A DNA stretch of 64,000 nucleotides from a virus (taxonomy: Duplodnaviria > Caudoviricetes), in the IMG/VR virus record IMGVR_UViG_2883526296_000003, positions 5,997 to 69,996 of that record. One strand, given 5' to 3'. Both the position numbers and the translations under genes were made by a program. Within the stretch, counting starts at the first letter, position 1, and each line of letters opens with the position of its first letter. Shown here piece by piece: positions 9,380 to 48,773 of the stretch. The notes below the pieces were generated by a model, which saw only the letters and a program-made list of their open reading frames with translations, ran no database searches and was not told the origin of the DNA.

Positions 9380-9823
9380 CTATAAATCCTCTAGATCCTG
9401 TTTCATCAGTTCGATCTGCTCTGGAGACATATCATCGTTATGTGCAGCAATAGGCATTAGGCGATCAACCTCATCCTCTTCTTTTTCTACGTCCAAGATC
9501 TTCTGGGAATAGGAAGAAATTTTTTGCTTTCCGACAGGAGAACATTGCCTATATGTACGTACCAGGCTTTTTTCATTTACGGATAAAGTATCCGATGGAG
9601 CCGAAAGCTTTACTTTCATCTCATTCATTTTATCCTGAAATATGTAGTTAGCATCAACCCCCAAAACCTGCATCAATTGGTAGAGTATATCAACCTTAGG
9701 ATGGCTTGTGTTGTTTTCGTAGTTTCCTATTGCGGTTTGACGAACACCCACCAGTTTAGCCAACTGCTCCTGTGTTAACCCTTTGCGCAATCGCGCTTCT
9801 CGTATTTTATTTCCTATGCCCAT
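9380..9823 (-). CDS. prophage repressor (Xre-HTH, ImmR-like)
   Basis: IREARLRKGLTQEQLAKLVGV..IGNYE HTH; C-terminal PIAAH motif; divergent from cro-like gene. Confidence 0.88.
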   Translation of the reverse strand: MGIGNKIREARLRKGLTQEQLAKLVGVRQTAIGNYENNTSHPKVDILYQLMQVLGVDANYIFQDKMNEMKVKLSAPSDTLSVNEKSLVRTYRQCSPVGKQKISSYSQKILDVEKEEDEVDRLMPIAAHNDDMSPEQIELMKQDLEDL

Positions 9824-9852
9824 TCAGTATTGCCTCCTCCACTGAGTAGAAC

Positions 9853-9965
9853 ATTATACCAAATATCTTTAAATGTCAAGATGAAAATACCAAATAACTT
9901 GGTAAAAAGTATTGACACAACAAGAAACTTGTTATATAGTGTGAAATATACCAAGAAACTTGTTA
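9853..9965. promoter_or_regulatory. lysis/lysogeny switch: divergent promoters with repeated operators
   Basis: TTGACA(9912)-N17-TATAGT rightward; extended -10 TGGTATAAT leftward; palindromes ACCAAataacTTGGT (9889), AACAAGaaaCTTGTT (9919), ACCAAGaaaCTTGTT (9950). Confidence 0.75.
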
Positions 9966-9983
9966 ATTAAAGGAGGGAGCAAA

Positions 9984-10199
9984 ATGTCCATAGTAGCAAT
10001 AAACGTTTACCGGATAATAGAAGAGAAATGCCTCAAGCAGTCTGCGGTAGCATTAAAAGCAGGATACGATCCTAAAAAATTTAACGCGATGCTCAGAGGA
10101 AGAAAAACCATTACTTCGGAGGATGTTTTACCAATAGCGGGCGCACTCGAAGTTGAAGTCAATGACCTATTTACCCAAAACGGGCAGATAAAACAATGA
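9984..10199 (+). CDS. Cro-like HTH regulator
   Basis: AAGGAGG RBS; short Xre HTH ending IAGALEVEVNDLF. Confidence 0.8.
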   Translation: MSIVAINVYRIIEEKCLKQSAVALKAGYDPKKFNAMLRGRKTITSEDVLPIAGALEVEVNDLFTQNGQIKQ

Positions 10200-10341
10200 A
10201 GAAGAGCTGAAGAGGAAAGAAAGTGCTTGGAGATATAAGAGAACACCCTCTGCGGAACGTGTCGGCATTAACGAGGGGAGGCATAAAAGTAAGACCTCAC
10301 AAAGTGTTGGATTTGTAGTATAATCAGAATGAGGTGAAAAT

Positions 10342-11025
10342 ATGGAATTAAATAGTTTATATAATATTTTAATATTTATTGCTCCAGGGCTATTAGTGAA
10401 AGAGTTACATGGATATTTTGTTAAAGGAAAGGTTTTCAAACAACCAGCTTACGAGTACATTTTTGAAATAGTAGTAGATAGTTTAATTGTTTTGTTTTTT
10501 AGTGTAGTTGTAATTAATTATTTTAACAAAGAGAATTTAAGCACTGTAGAAAGTATTACTACATATTTTAATGACATTTTTAATATAGCAAGTTTCATAG
10601 GAATTGCGTTTCCAATAGCCGTTATATGGTGTATATTAAAATATAAGGTTATTATCCCATCATTTTTAAAAACTAAAAATTTTATGTTTACTAAGTTGGG
10701 GTTCACGTTTGTCCATACAGGTAAGCCTAGCACATGGGATAGCATGATGGAATATCAAGATATAAATAATACCTGGCAAGTTGTTTCTGTGTATAATCAT
10801 AATAATTATATTACGTCAGGAATGATAGAGGAAAGAATATCGTCGAATGCAGCTGAATTTGAGCTGGCTTTAGAATATAAACAGGATACAGAGAAACTTA
10901 TGAAAGAATACCCAGAAAAATTTCGTGTATGGCATGAATATTACAATATAAATACTGGGCTTAGAGTATTATTTTACAATCAAGAATTATTACAAGAGCA
11001 CTGGGATAAAATGATTAATAAATAA
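10342..11025 (+). CDS. AT-rich membrane protein (moron, DUF6338-like)
   Basis: three hydrophobic segments, FIAPG near N-terminus, PSTWD motif. Confidence 0.55.
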   Translation: MELNSLYNILIFIAPGLLVKELHGYFVKGKVFKQPAYEYIFEIVVDSLIVLFFSVVVINYFNKENLSTVESITTYFNDIFNIASFIGIAFPIAVIWCILKYKVIIPSFLKTKNFMFTKLGFTFVHTGKPSTWDSMMEYQDINNTWQVVSVYNHNNYITSGMIEERISSNAAEFELALEYKQDTEKLMKEYPEKFRVWHEYYNINTGLRVLFYNQELLQEHWDKMINK

Positions 11026-11026
11026 A

Positions 11027-11158
11027 TTATTTTTTCGGGGGCTTAGGAGGAGAGACAATTTTCAGGCTAGTAGCTCCATCGCGAGATGTGCTAGTTTTAC
11101 TACCGTTTTTAGACCCGCTTTGTGGTGGGTTAGAAATTGAAACAGGGTTATTACTCAT
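11027..11158 (-). CDS. 43-aa Ser/Pro-rich peptide (not in ORF track)
   Basis: GGAGG RBS; MSNNPVSISNPPQSGSK...VSPPKPPKK. Confidence 0.5.
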   Translation of the reverse strand: MSNNPVSISNPPQSGSKNGSKTSTSRDGATSLKIVSPPKPPKK

Positions 11159-11452
11159 ACTGATACCTCCAATACGTCCAGTGCTCAAAAACATTATACA
11201 ACATACAACAAAATACTACAAATCCAAACACTATGAATCAACATAGTGTTTTTTTATACCCCGAAACATGGGAATGAGAAAAAGCTGAGATGTGAAATGC
11301 CAGTTGAGAGGAGGTGAAGAGAAGATGGGAAACAGAGAGAACTCTCAACATCAATGTGGGATAGTTAGATGGGGTAATCAAAAAAGCGAACCAGCTAAGC
11401 GAACTCTTGCTAGAAGTTCGGAAACAGTTTGATTCGCTTTCAGAAATACAGC

Positions 11453-47186: not shown

Positions 47187-47216
47187 AAAAATACCGGGCA
47201 TTAAACCCGGTATTTT
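47187..47216. terminator. bidirectional terminator at the right prophage end
   Basis: AAAATACCGGG-cattaaa-CCCGGTATTTT. Confidence 0.75.
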
Positions 47217-47218
47217 GT

Positions 47219-47265
47219 ATTATAGTCAGATGCTGTGTGGAGGACCCGACGGGGAACTAGGAGCC
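47219..47265. other. attR of the prophage (core GGACC 47242-47246)
   Basis: core matches 6390-6394; CotJC similarity begins here. Confidence 0.85.
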
Positions 47266-47751
47266 ACGCTCAGATACTTATCACAGCGCTATACCATGCC
47301 ATACAAAGAGTGCATCGGTATATTAACCGACATCGGTACAGAGGAAATCGGCCACTTTGAAATGATTGCAACTATCGTACATCAACTGACCAGGGGACTG
47401 ACTATTGAACAGATTAAAGCGGCGGGCTTTGGTGATTACTTTGTAGACCACACTACAGGCATTTATACAGTGTCTGCAGCAGGGGTTCCTTTTGATGCCA
47501 CCTGTTTTGCCTCAAAAGGAGACGCAATCACAGACTTGATGGAAGATATGGCAGCAGAGCAGAAAGCGAGAACTACTTATGACAACATCCTGCGGTTAGC
47601 CGACGACCCGGATGTCATTGAACCAATTAAGTTTTTAAGAGCTCGAGAAGTCGTTCATTTCCAGCGTTTTGGCGAAGCTCTGCGGGTTGTTCAGGATAAC
47701 TTGAACAGCCGGAATTTCTATGCCTTCAACCCAGAATTTGATCGCTGCTAA
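47242..47751 (+). CDS. cotJC: 3' part of cotJC (manganese catalase family spore coat protein)
   Basis: GPDGELGATLRYLSQRY, LTDIGTEEIGHFEM, EDMAAEQKAR.TY, FLRAREVVHFQRFGEAL. Confidence 0.93.
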   Translation, partial: GPDGELGATLRYLSQRYTMPYKECIGILTDIGTEEIGHFEMIATIVHQLTRGLTIEQIKAAGFGDYFVDHTTGIYTVSAAGVPFDATCFASKGDAITDLMEDMAAEQKARTTYDNILRLADDPDVIEPIKFLRAREVVHFQRFGEALRVVQDNLNSRNFYAFNPEFDRC

Positions 47752-47772
47752 TAGGCAGCTTGAAACTAGACA

Positions 47773-47808
47773 AAAAAGAGGAAGCTTGGAGCAGCTTCCT
47801 CTTTTCTT
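47773..47808. terminator. bidirectional terminator between cotJC and the immA-like gene
   Basis: AAAAGAGGAAGCT-tggagc-AGCTTCCTCTTTT. Confidence 0.8.
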
Positions 47809-47842
47809 ATAAAATATGTAAAATTTCATTTGTTACCGTGCC

Positions 47843-48271
47843 TCAATCGTCTCTGCGAATGGGAAATTCCATGCCCAATTTTCGTTCATAATGGCTCATG
47901 CTAGCCCGGACAAATTCTTCATCCAGGTCCAGAAACTCCGCCACATCAGAGGGGGTACGGCAGCCAGCGTTAGCGGCTCGTTCAAAATGTTCGAAAGGAA
48001 GGAGCTTATCAATCGCCCAAGCCCGCGCTTTGTGCTCCTGCTTTACGTTTGAGGTATCGCTTTGGTCTAAAATATTTCCCACTGTAGTATAATAGTGGCC
48101 CAATTCCTCGGCTAGAACGCAAAGTTTTTCCCGATTGTTTATCTTATAATTAATAGCAATTTTAGCTCCTTTACACAACCCCTTCGCATTGGAACTAAAA
48201 TGCTTTTCCTGAACCTGAATTCCTGCGAATTCTGCTTCTTTCATTAGATCTTCATATGTCAAAGACATCAA
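47843..48271 (-). CDS. ImmA/IrrE family metallopeptidase (antirepressor)
   Basis: LAEELGHYYTTVGNILDQ...KQEHKAR.WA motif (EExxH variant); co-transcribed after repressor. Confidence 0.85.
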   Translation of the reverse strand: MMSLTYEDLMKEAEFAGIQVQEKHFSSNAKGLCKGAKIAINYKINNREKLCVLAEELGHYYTTVGNILDQSDTSNVKQEHKARAWAIDKLLPFEHFERAANAGCRTPSDVAEFLDLDEEFVRASMSHYERKLGMEFPIRRDD

Positions 48272-48293
48272 CCCCTTAAATCATTCATCAACA

Positions 48294-48773
48294 CTATAAA
48301 TCTTCTAAGTCCTGCATCATCAGAGCAATCTGCTCTGGAGACATATCGTCATTGTGAGCGGCAATCGGCATCAGATGATCTACCGCTTTTTCTTCCTTTT
48401 CTAAATCGAGAACTTTTCTCGAATAGGTGACGATTTTTTGCTTCCCATCTGGGGAACATCGGGCATAGGTGCTCAACAAGTCCTTTGCGCCGGCAGATAG
48501 TTTGACCGGTTGCTTAAAGGAAGAAATTCGATCTCTGGGTACATCATAGCCCATGAGCCAAGCTTCATTTACGTTCAGTGCCATGCCCAATACGGCCAGC
48601 TTATCCTGATTGGGCTCCACTTTCCCCGACACATACTGGCTGATATCGGATTTATTCATTTTTACCTTATATTTCTCGCAATAAGGCATGGCCATATTTA
48701 AAATATCGATTTGGCGCAGGTTTCTCTCCTCCATCATCATTTTTAACCGCATAGAAGTATTTTCTTTTTTCAT
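48294..48773 (-). CDS. Xre-HTH repressor of the tail cluster
   Basis: RLK.MMEERNLRQIDI...KSDISQYVSGKVEP...LGMALNVNEAWLMGYDVP; C-terminal PIAAH. Confidence 0.88.
   Translation of the reverse strand: MKKENTSMRLKMMMEERNLRQIDILNMAMPYCEKYKVKMNKSDISQYVSGKVEPNQDKLAVLGMALNVNEAWLMGYDVPRDRISSFKQPVKLSAGAKDLLSTYARCSPDGKQKIVTYSRKVLDLEKEEKAVDHLMPIAAHNDDMSPEQIALMMQDLEDL

Follow-up and report, generated by a model that had tools for sequence, protein, structure and literature searches.

A tailocin ImmA protease as candidate anti-repressor of the prophage that interrupts cotJC

The window analysed here is a stretch of 64,000 nucleotides (nt), positions 5,997 to 69,996 of IMG/VR record IMGVR_UViG_2883526296_000003, within a single-contig genome of 3.33 Mb. 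Two phage-derived elements lie side by side in it, a siphovirus-type prophage inserted in the spore-coat gene cotJC and then an R-type tailocin. Each encodes a repressor with an ImmA-type carboxyl-terminal tail, and only the tailocin encodes an ImmA protease. It is moderately probable that this protease acts in trans as the anti-repressor of the prophage, which would make the locus a new and distant example of the arrangement formed in Listeria by the monocin and phage phi10403S.

Organisation of the locus

The cotJ genes and the prophage are laid out as follows.

5447-6052: cotJA
6049-6297: cotJB
6301-6394: cotJC 5' piece; the first 31 codons, which break near 6394 and read ...ITQYGGP
6395..47246: siphovirus-type prophage of ~40.85 kb, inserted in cotJC
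6414..7823, minus strand: large serine recombinase (Resolvase, Recombinase and Zn_ribbon_recom) at the left end of the prophage
47247-47751: cotJC 3' piece; reads DGELGATLRY... and has a Mn_catalase match (E 5.3e-40)

The prophage junctions are GGTGGACC (6387-6394) and GGAGGACC (47239-47246). The reading frame of cotJC runs on across them (...QYGGP/DGELGA...), and excision of the prophage would restore the gene in frame. The prophage is thus a recombinase-bearing element that splits a sporulation gene, as is characteristic of sporulation-gene intervening elements. In a search of sequencing runs, none contained more than 0.12 of the sampled words and no RNA run was among the matches. Its serine recombinase is followed by the lysogeny switch, the early genes, which include one for a rolling-circle-type Rep, the genes for packaging, head and siphovirus tail, and a lysis cassette. 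The genes for terminase, portal, ClpP, capsid, tail tube and tape measure all have open frames. The second element (47843-62905, ~15 kb) begins 90 bases beyond the end of cotJC.

Two repressors with a common carboxyl-terminal tail

Each element codes for one repressor.

9380..9823, minus strand: prophage repressor, 147 amino acids (aa), with an XRE helix-turn-helix (HTH) domain (HTH_3 E 4.7e-17), a helical hairpin and an ImmA-type tail
9383..9460, minus strand: tail of the prophage repressor, LMPIAAHNDDMSPEQIELMKQDLEDL, with a predicted scissile bond between A127 and H128
48294..48773, minus strand: tailocin repressor, 159 aa, matching PHROG CI-like repressor and regulator families
48297-48374, minus strand: tail of the tailocin repressor, LMPIAAHNDDMSPEQIALMMQDLEDL, with a predicted scissile bond between A139 and H140

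The two proteins align by BLASTP with 63/130 identities (E 1e-34), the strong similarity being confined to the C-terminal ~67 residues while their HTH parts are weakly alike. Their last 26 residues are identical at 24 positions, and the 16 residues that flank the predicted cut (LMPIAA/HNDDMSPEQI, the slash marking the bond) are the same in both. No Peptidase_S24 or other peptidase family is found in either repressor at E <= 0.01, which sets them apart from the self-cleaving class of LexA and lambda CI. The first-pass annotation of this DNA had described dissimilar HTH domains, different operators, nearly equal C-termini and no LexA-type autopeptidase domain, a description that holds in all these respects.

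The AlphaFold model of the prophage repressor has a mean predicted local distance difference test score (pLDDT) of 86.3. It features the HTH domain (residues 1-61), helices 82-92 and 96-120, a coil (121-133) and a last helix (134-146), with nothing but helices following the HTH. The cleavage motif falls in that coil, the only one of low confidence between helices. It is plausible from the model that the motif forms a protease-accessible site and that a cut there would remove the terminal helix. The C-terminal module common to the two repressors is composed of a helical hairpin, an exposed loop carrying PIAA/HNDD and a last amphipathic helix, and its motif identifies it as a candidate substrate tail of ImmA/MpaR-type M78 metalloproteases.

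The tail is found across a family of proteins. A HMMER search with the 70-residue C-terminal domain as query against 1.84 billion representatives yields 19 proteins at E <= 0.001, and a word-index search with the same domain retrieves only the two window proteins and one protein of Anaerovorax odorimutans. The relatives were aligned as a set of 19 sequences, from which a repetitive protein of 1536 aa without the motif (P0019) was left out. Residues A126, A127, H128, N129, E135 and D143 are invariant in this set, while the HTH domains and linkers are diverse. The family motif is PIAAHNDD..EQ..LM.QDLEDL, and both window repressors read PIAAHNDDMSPEQ..LM.QDLEDL. A tblastn search of named phages with the tail domain gives only a partial match, short of the motif, in Clostridium phage phiCT9441A, whose lysogeny module has a different organisation.

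The near-identity of the tails, noted in the first-pass annotation, does not point to a connection peculiar to the two elements. In a set of 46 distinct tails of 26 residues, the pair from the window has 23/26 identities in the same register, and the prophage tail reaches 22/26 with tails of unrelated source. The likeness reflects family-wide conservation, and a special co-adaptation of the two tails was rejected on this comparison.

Over the last 26 codons the repressor pair has 12.0 synonymous differences in 14.8 sites (pS 0.81, the proportion of synonymous differences) and 3.0 non-synonymous differences in 63.2 sites (pN 0.047, its non-synonymous counterpart). Synonymous sites are saturated while the peptide is constant; the divergence is therefore old, and it is purifying selection rather than recent gene conversion that keeps the tails the same. 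Recent gene conversion of the tail was accordingly rejected.

A single ImmA protease in the genome

In the tailocin the repressor is followed by a protease gene, and in the prophage the same position is occupied by a defence gene.

47843..48271, minus strand: ImmA/MpaR-type M78 metallopeptidase, 142 aa (PF06114, 28.7 bits with a cut-off of 22; phrog_87 metallo-protease, E 1.8e-29)
7997..9334, minus strand: PD-Lambda-1-type defence gene (DUF4041 and T5orf172/MUG113), in the slot 45 nt after the prophage repressor

The immA gene starts 22 nt after the tailocin repressor. Its product has the metal site EELGH (residues 55-59) together with Q78 and E79, and positions E55, E56, H59, Q78, E79 and R83 are invariant in 16/16 aligned ImmA sequences. 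It is 27% identical to Gp35 of Listeria phage A118 over 106 aa (E 1e-13), and tblastn with the window ImmA matches 236 phage records, 24 of which are from Listeria. The ImmA model (pLDDT 92.9) is related by Foldseek to 8slm, 3dti, 3dte and 7t5t (PprI/IrrE and CapP) with probability 1.00. The template modelling (TM) scores are 0.59-0.61 when normalised to the query and 0.32-0.38 when normalised to the target chains, which have 243-278 residues. The window protein lacks the C-terminal GAF sensor domain, its 142-aa model ending after a helical linker. A search of PDB sequences with the ImmA profile matched a single C-type lectin chain in which no stretch passed alone, a hit taken as spurious.

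This protease has no second copy within reach of the searches. When the whole genome was searched with PF06114 in six frames, only the tailocin ImmA came out over the cut-off, and one weak match scored 12.9 bits at 2.85 Mb. A subfamily profile built from 16 ImmA sequences finds the same single gene in the genome and otherwise one match of E 0.155 at 2.22 Mb. A custom hidden Markov model (HMM) run on all window open reading frames (ORFs) of at least 40 aa reports only 47843-48271 at E <= 10. The profile of the tail detects exactly two tails over the whole genome. The genome combines one ImmA with two potential substrates.

The gene that stands in the prophage slot was assigned by PADLOC to PD-Lambda-1 (PDLC03976, E 1.8e-153, profile positions 54-474 of 491). 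The gap of 45 nt between it and the repressor, with no terminator-like site before 7873, indicates that the two genes are probably co-transcribed. Relatives of PD-Lambda-1 were searched for in viral contigs and none was confirmed. The first-pass annotation had placed immA behind the tailocin repressor, seen none in the prophage and named the gene in the prophage slot after its DUF4041 domain. The first two statements agree with these searches; the domain is indeed present in the third gene, whose label is corrected to that of a PD-Lambda-1 defence gene.

Association of the tail with an adjacent immA gene

A survey of tail against immA presence in related phages had been proposed with the first-pass annotation. 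Loci were gathered by similarity to the tail alone and numbered 38: nine from species genomes, 13 from viral contigs, five from genomes of the same family and 11 from metagenomes. One of them (L033), which is alike only at the front of the domain and has no AAH motif, was set aside, leaving 37, and removal of three re-finds of the same sequence gave 34 distinct loci. An ImmA-family ORF lies directly downstream of the tail-bearing repressor, on the same strand, in 34/34 of these distinct other loci. The downstream ORFs score 113-234 bits on the ImmA profile and are separated from the repressor by -62 to +56 nt; in the genome contigs eight of nine match PF06114 at E <= 0.01, six of them over the cut-off. 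Of 36 repressors with the tail, that of the prophage is thus alone in lacking an ImmA of its own, and the only ImmA of its genome is encoded 38 kb away, under control of the second window repressor with such a tail. The earlier view, in which the tailocin protease would act on the prophage repressor as an ImmA substrate, is supported in silico by the MpaR-site motif, by this linkage and by the presence of one ImmA for two tails.

Several of the surveyed loci have features of their own. In a metagenome contig (L044:2062-2537, plus strand) the ImmA gene behind the tail-bearing repressor is split in two pieces, which could be due to a frameshift, a pseudogene or a sequencing error. In a viral contig (L017:3195-4625, plus strand) a 476-aa ORF contains the ImmA-family region, the protease appearing to be fused to a further domain. 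One contig of a Lachnospiraceae metagenome-assembled genome carries two near-identical switch regions with repressor and ImmA (L010 and L011), ~32 kb apart, whose first ~2.6 kb are the same.

The absence of immA in the prophage could also mean that it is locked in the chromosome or leaves it only during sporulation. Its immA would have been lost to PD-Lambda-1, the tail would be a relic, and the prophage would stay or leave by expression of its recombinase in the mother cell, independently of the tailocin. The serine recombinase at the end of the element fits such a life style, and 10.1101/2021.11.22.469490, in the excerpts used, names cotJC as a site where sporulation-gene intervening elements integrate repeatedly, with reference to Abe et al. 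2013. The supply of ImmA in cis in 34/34 other loci suggests that cis supply matters, and purifying selection, being averaged since the divergence of the repressors, is no proof of present use of the tail. Nevertheless, every invariant residue of the tail is intact, the morphogenesis and lysis genes are all open with no sign of decay, and a compatible ImmA is found at 38 kb. The same configuration works in trans in Listeria, according to the excerpts used of PMC6872733. A locked or sporulation-only prophage is consequently regarded as unlikely.

In a further scheme the prophage would be induced on its own. A small anti-repressor of the prophage, a host protease or RecA-dependent chemistry would inactivate its repressor, the tail would mainly be a dimerisation helix, and the two elements would be uncoupled or coupled by SOS only. 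Many early ORFs of the prophage are of no known function, and the cleaved C-terminal region of DdrO and CapH doubles as a dimerisation domain (for DdrO, in the excerpts used of PMC12828697). Against this scheme, no PHROG anti-repressor family is present among the 32 ORFs scanned (>= 90 aa), there is no ANT domain in the genome, no Bro-N domain in the prophage and no S24 domain in the repressor, and in each of the 34 other loci the tail has an ImmA next to it. Induction by such an independent route appears improbable.

Operators, promoters and a possible trigger

Each element has a CI/Cro-type switch of its own, and the control regions of the two switches differ in organisation.

9856..9966: prophage operator repeats ACCAAnnAACTTGnTA, 3-4 copies with ~30-nt spacing
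9912-9940: prophage rightward promoter, TTGACA-17-TATAGT
9960..10199, plus strand: Cro-like HTH gene of the prophage, transcribed away from the repressor (PHROG repressor/regulator families, E 2e-4 to 6e-4; Pfam HTH weak)
47772..47807, minus strand: terminator-like hairpin with a 15-bp stem, after immA, closing the repressor-immA operon
48795..48889: tailocin switch region
48804-48827: tailocin palindrome TATATTGAAC-AAAA-GTTCAATATA, 24 nt, perfect and single
48823-48795: tailocin leftward promoter, TTGAAC-17-TATATT, leading the repressor-immA operon
48861-48889: tailocin rightward promoter, TTGACA-17-TAAGAT, leading into the tail genes
48930..49214, plus strand: Cro-like DUF739 gene (PF05339, E 7.9e-25), first gene of the tailocin rightward operon

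The repressor-immA operon has its own promoter and terminator, and ImmA can therefore be present before induction, made alongside the repressor. The -35 element of the leftward promoter lies inside the 24-nt palindrome. The palindrome core, TGAACAAAAGTTCA, is the sole exact GAAC-N4-GTTC sequence in the window and one of 20 in the genome. It agrees at 12/14 positions with the LexA-type box of the host recA gene, AGAACAAATGTTCA, which is found just after the -10 element, and similar boxes occur at lexA (AGAACGCATGTTTA) and at a Y-family polymerase gene (AGAACTTATGTTCT). Were the palindrome a genuine LexA box, both elements would come directly under the host SOS regulon. The palindrome spans 24 nt, however, and has further half-sites nearby, which makes it look more like a repressor operator. 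That it is a LexA box putting immA under SOS control is given somewhat less than an even chance on these sequence features.

As to damage sensing by ImmA-type enzymes, CapP and IrrE are described as stimulated by single-stranded DNA (ssDNA) in the excerpts used, while the B. subtilis ImmA is reported to be without such stimulation in the part of PMC12828697 used here.

Tailocin genes and the two lysis cassettes

The structural and lysis genes relevant to the two elements are the following.

49274..59519, plus strand: R-type tailocin structural genes, coding for tail terminator, sheath, tube, XkdN-like chaperone, tape measure, LysM, YqbQ-like, DUF2577, sheath initiator, baseplate J, Gp48-like and glycine-rich fibre proteins
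61822..62905, plus strand: tailocin lysis cassette (M23 peptidase, small phrog_1863 protein, holin)
45185..46286, plus strand: prophage lysis cassette (M23 peptidase, small phrog_1863 protein, holin)

No capsid or head, portal, terminase, replication or integrase/integration families are found between 47843 and 62905. By its set of contractile-tail and lysis genes, R-type tailocin is a fair name for this element.

The lysis cassettes of the prophage and the tailocin are 80% identical in DNA over 1057 bp, and their products are 84% (M23 peptidase), 91% (phrog_1863 protein) and 88% (holin) identical. They are far closer to each other than the rest of the two elements, which suggests module exchange. 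The 3' parts of the repressor genes have 75% DNA identity over 168 bp. The likeness of the two elements might then be a mosaic leftover, the C-terminus of the repressor and the lysis cassette having been swapped between co-resident or ancestral phages, with no bearing on present function. The saturated synonymous sites and conserved peptide of the tail argue against a recent copy and for selection in both lineages, and exchange would account for the origin of the tail, not for the upkeep of an orphan tail beside the only protease. A mere leftover of exchange is accordingly considered very improbable.

A model for joint induction

The preferred reading, action of the tailocin ImmA in trans, leads to the following model. 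The repressor-immA operon would be transcribed in the lysogenic state, and a stress signal, most likely DNA damage, would make ImmA active. The protease would then cut the tailocin repressor between A139 and H140 and the prophage repressor between A127 and H128, removing the last 20 residues and abolishing binding to the operators. The genes of the tailocin and the lytic genes of the prophage would be de-repressed jointly, excision of the prophage would rejoin cotJC, and the two near-identical holin/M23 cassettes would lyse the cell. The prophage would have lost its own immA, or never had one, and the PD-Lambda-1 gene in its slot would be expressed with the repressor. Prophage and tailocin would probably be induced together, as in Listeria.

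A number of points weigh against this reading. The likeness of the tails does not exceed what conservation in the family would lead one to expect, and nothing in it speaks for specific co-adaptation. The searches turned up no close relative of the prophage or of the tailocin, a single protein exceeding 60% identity in the tail domain. In 300 other genomes of the order the tailocin repressor had no orthologue over its full length; matches there are at the level of the HTH only (43-54% identity over the first ~85 residues) and without the tail. The orphan state of the prophage repressor may accordingly be neither old nor stable. The strict arrangement in cis at the 34 other loci could point to a general need for a protease encoded in cis, and the prophage may code for small anti-repressors, the PHROG scan having covered ORFs of at least 90 aa. 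In the IrrE/DdrO system the DNA-binding domain at the repressor's N-terminus aids binding and efficient cleavage, according to the part of PMC12828697 used. Cross-cleavage could be poor because this domain contributes in DdrO and the HTH domains here are unlike, an objection countered by the Listeria repressors, which likewise have only one common region in the excerpts used. As to the trigger, the exact GAAC-N4-GTTC sequence is absent from all 29 homologous switch regions (<= 220 nt upstream of the repressor start), three of which have it with a single mismatch, and LexA control as a feature of the family was rejected on this count. The LexA-like box may simply be the operator of the tailocin repressor.

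A bolder version of the model is possible but doubtful. It sees the domesticated tailocin as the master stress sensor of a prophage that splits cotJC, a system of a spore-forming clostridial lineage, independent of that of Listeria, in which ImmA would time the exit of the prophage ("active lysogeny"), the phage having handed over the protease and reused its slot, expressed from the repressor promoter, for defence. The presence of an intact spore-coat gene would then be governed by a stress-activated protease in addition to the sporulation programme.

Were action in trans confirmed, it would provide a rule to recognise dependent prophages from sequence: a repressor with a [PT]IAAH tail, no adjacent M78 gene and such a gene elsewhere in the genome. 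It would also reveal a route by which a prophage frees a slot expressed in lysogeny for a defence gene, and a testable link between stress, phage induction and the integrity of a spore-coat gene.

Other genes of the window

The early region of the prophage (13926-14207, 15760-18347 and 21531-23570, plus strand) codes for AbrB/MazE-fold, PcfJ-like and DUF3102 proteins, a rolling-circle-type replication initiator and a radical-SAM protein. Two paralogous early ORFs (11453-11803 and 13185-13505, minus strand) both match the C-terminal end of phrog_2211, a family of unknown function, and an ORF matching phrog_750 sits between them. A DUF4352-like gene and a zinc-ribbon/SHOCT gene (phrog_888) are found between the prophage tail assembly chaperone and the tape measure (34940-36683, plus strand), an unusual place for accessory genes. 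A Kelch-repeat and Big_2 protein of 472 aa (43682-45100, plus strand) is encoded between the tail genes and the lysis cassette of the prophage. Upstream of the cotJ operon, beside an SLH-domain protein, a Mob_Pre plasmid-recombination (relaxase) gene (2480-3688, plus strand) and two small ORFs (3703-4280) may constitute a small integrated mobilisable element.

Comparison with known systems

Like the sporulation-gene intervening elements, the prophage is phage-like, has a serine recombinase and interrupts a gene for sporulation; cotJC is among the sites that these elements use in the source excerpts. Skin in sigK, SPbeta in spsM and others in cotJC, gerE and spoVR are excised by the developmental programme of the mother cell. 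The control proposed here differs, as it would be exerted by a stress-activated protease of the neighbouring tailocin.

IrrE/DdrO (Deinococcus) and CapP/CapH (regulators of CBASS) have the same predicted peptidase fold as the window ImmA, and the XRE repressor is cut in both within its C-terminal oligomerisation region. As far as the excerpts of the sources go, these enzymes differ by an extra GAF domain, which the window ImmA lacks, and by their response to ssDNA, and they regulate repair or defence genes rather than phage lytic genes. The ImmR/ImmA pair of ICEBs1 in Bacillus subtilis and the repressor-protease pairs of phages likewise have an XRE repressor followed directly by an M78 anti-repressor protease that cleaves it, in an operon that is auto-regulated (excerpts of PMC6872733). 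The ICEBs1 pair works in cis, inside a single element and with int behind it, whereas one protease is proposed to serve two elements here and the tailocin has no integrase.

The closest parallel is the monocin of Listeria monocytogenes. The excerpts used of Argov et al. 2019 (PMC6872733) report that the monocin locus encodes a CI-like repressor and the DUF955 metalloprotease MpaR, and that phi10403S, the comK prophage, has no protease of its own and is not inducible without the monocin MpaR. MpaR de-represses both the monocin and the protease-less prophage; cleavage of both repressors in vivo depends on MpaR and requires its EELMH site. The cut in phi10403S CI was mapped by mass spectrometry between A74 and H75, and the five repressors controlled by MpaR have one common region, TIAAHIDxxxxEExxxxILAYIE. 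The same excerpts identify A118 Gp35 as the phage homologue of MpaR and describe two redundant lysis modules in Listeria (PMC6872733). Listeria is therefore a direct precedent, and the arrangement is not new in kind. Within the library searched, full-text searches did not find it outside Listeria, returning only Listeria work and one general review.

The likeness extends to several levels. In both cases a tailocin locus has one operon that pairs a CI-like repressor with a DUF955/M78 protease and points away from the structural genes, and a co-resident prophage without a protease of its own, and without a peptidase domain in its repressor, interrupts a host gene. IAAH.D....E follows unlike HTH domains in both repressors, the protease has an E-E-x-x-H metal site (EELGH in the window and EELMH in MpaR, as given in the excerpts), and both elements carry redundant lysis modules. 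The tail of the A118 repressor Gp36 in the phage record reads LLAAHIDNDLTEEE. The identity with A118 Gp35, through which homology was measured, the E-E-x-x-H site and the IAAH motif indicate that the protease and the substrate motif of the window are both homologous to the Listeria pair.

The differences are also clear. The identity is low (27% to A118 Gp35); the host is a spore-forming relative of Anaerovorax, of another class; and the recombinase of the prophage is of the serine type. The tailocin of the window is R-type, with sheath and tube, and the Listeria monocin is non-contractile. Two further features would be local twists on the Listeria scheme, the choice of a sporulation gene, cotJC instead of comK, as interrupted locus and the presence of a PD-Lambda-1-type defence gene in what may be a vacated immA slot. 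If the proposed action in trans is true, the Listeria arrangement is not confined to a single genus and would have a second instance in another class of Firmicutes, where tail type, recombinase and interrupted gene are all different. The principle described in Listeria, that a tailocin-encoded protease co-ordinates co-resident phage elements and hence the state of a phage-interrupted host gene, would then apply to a spore-coat gene as it does to comK.

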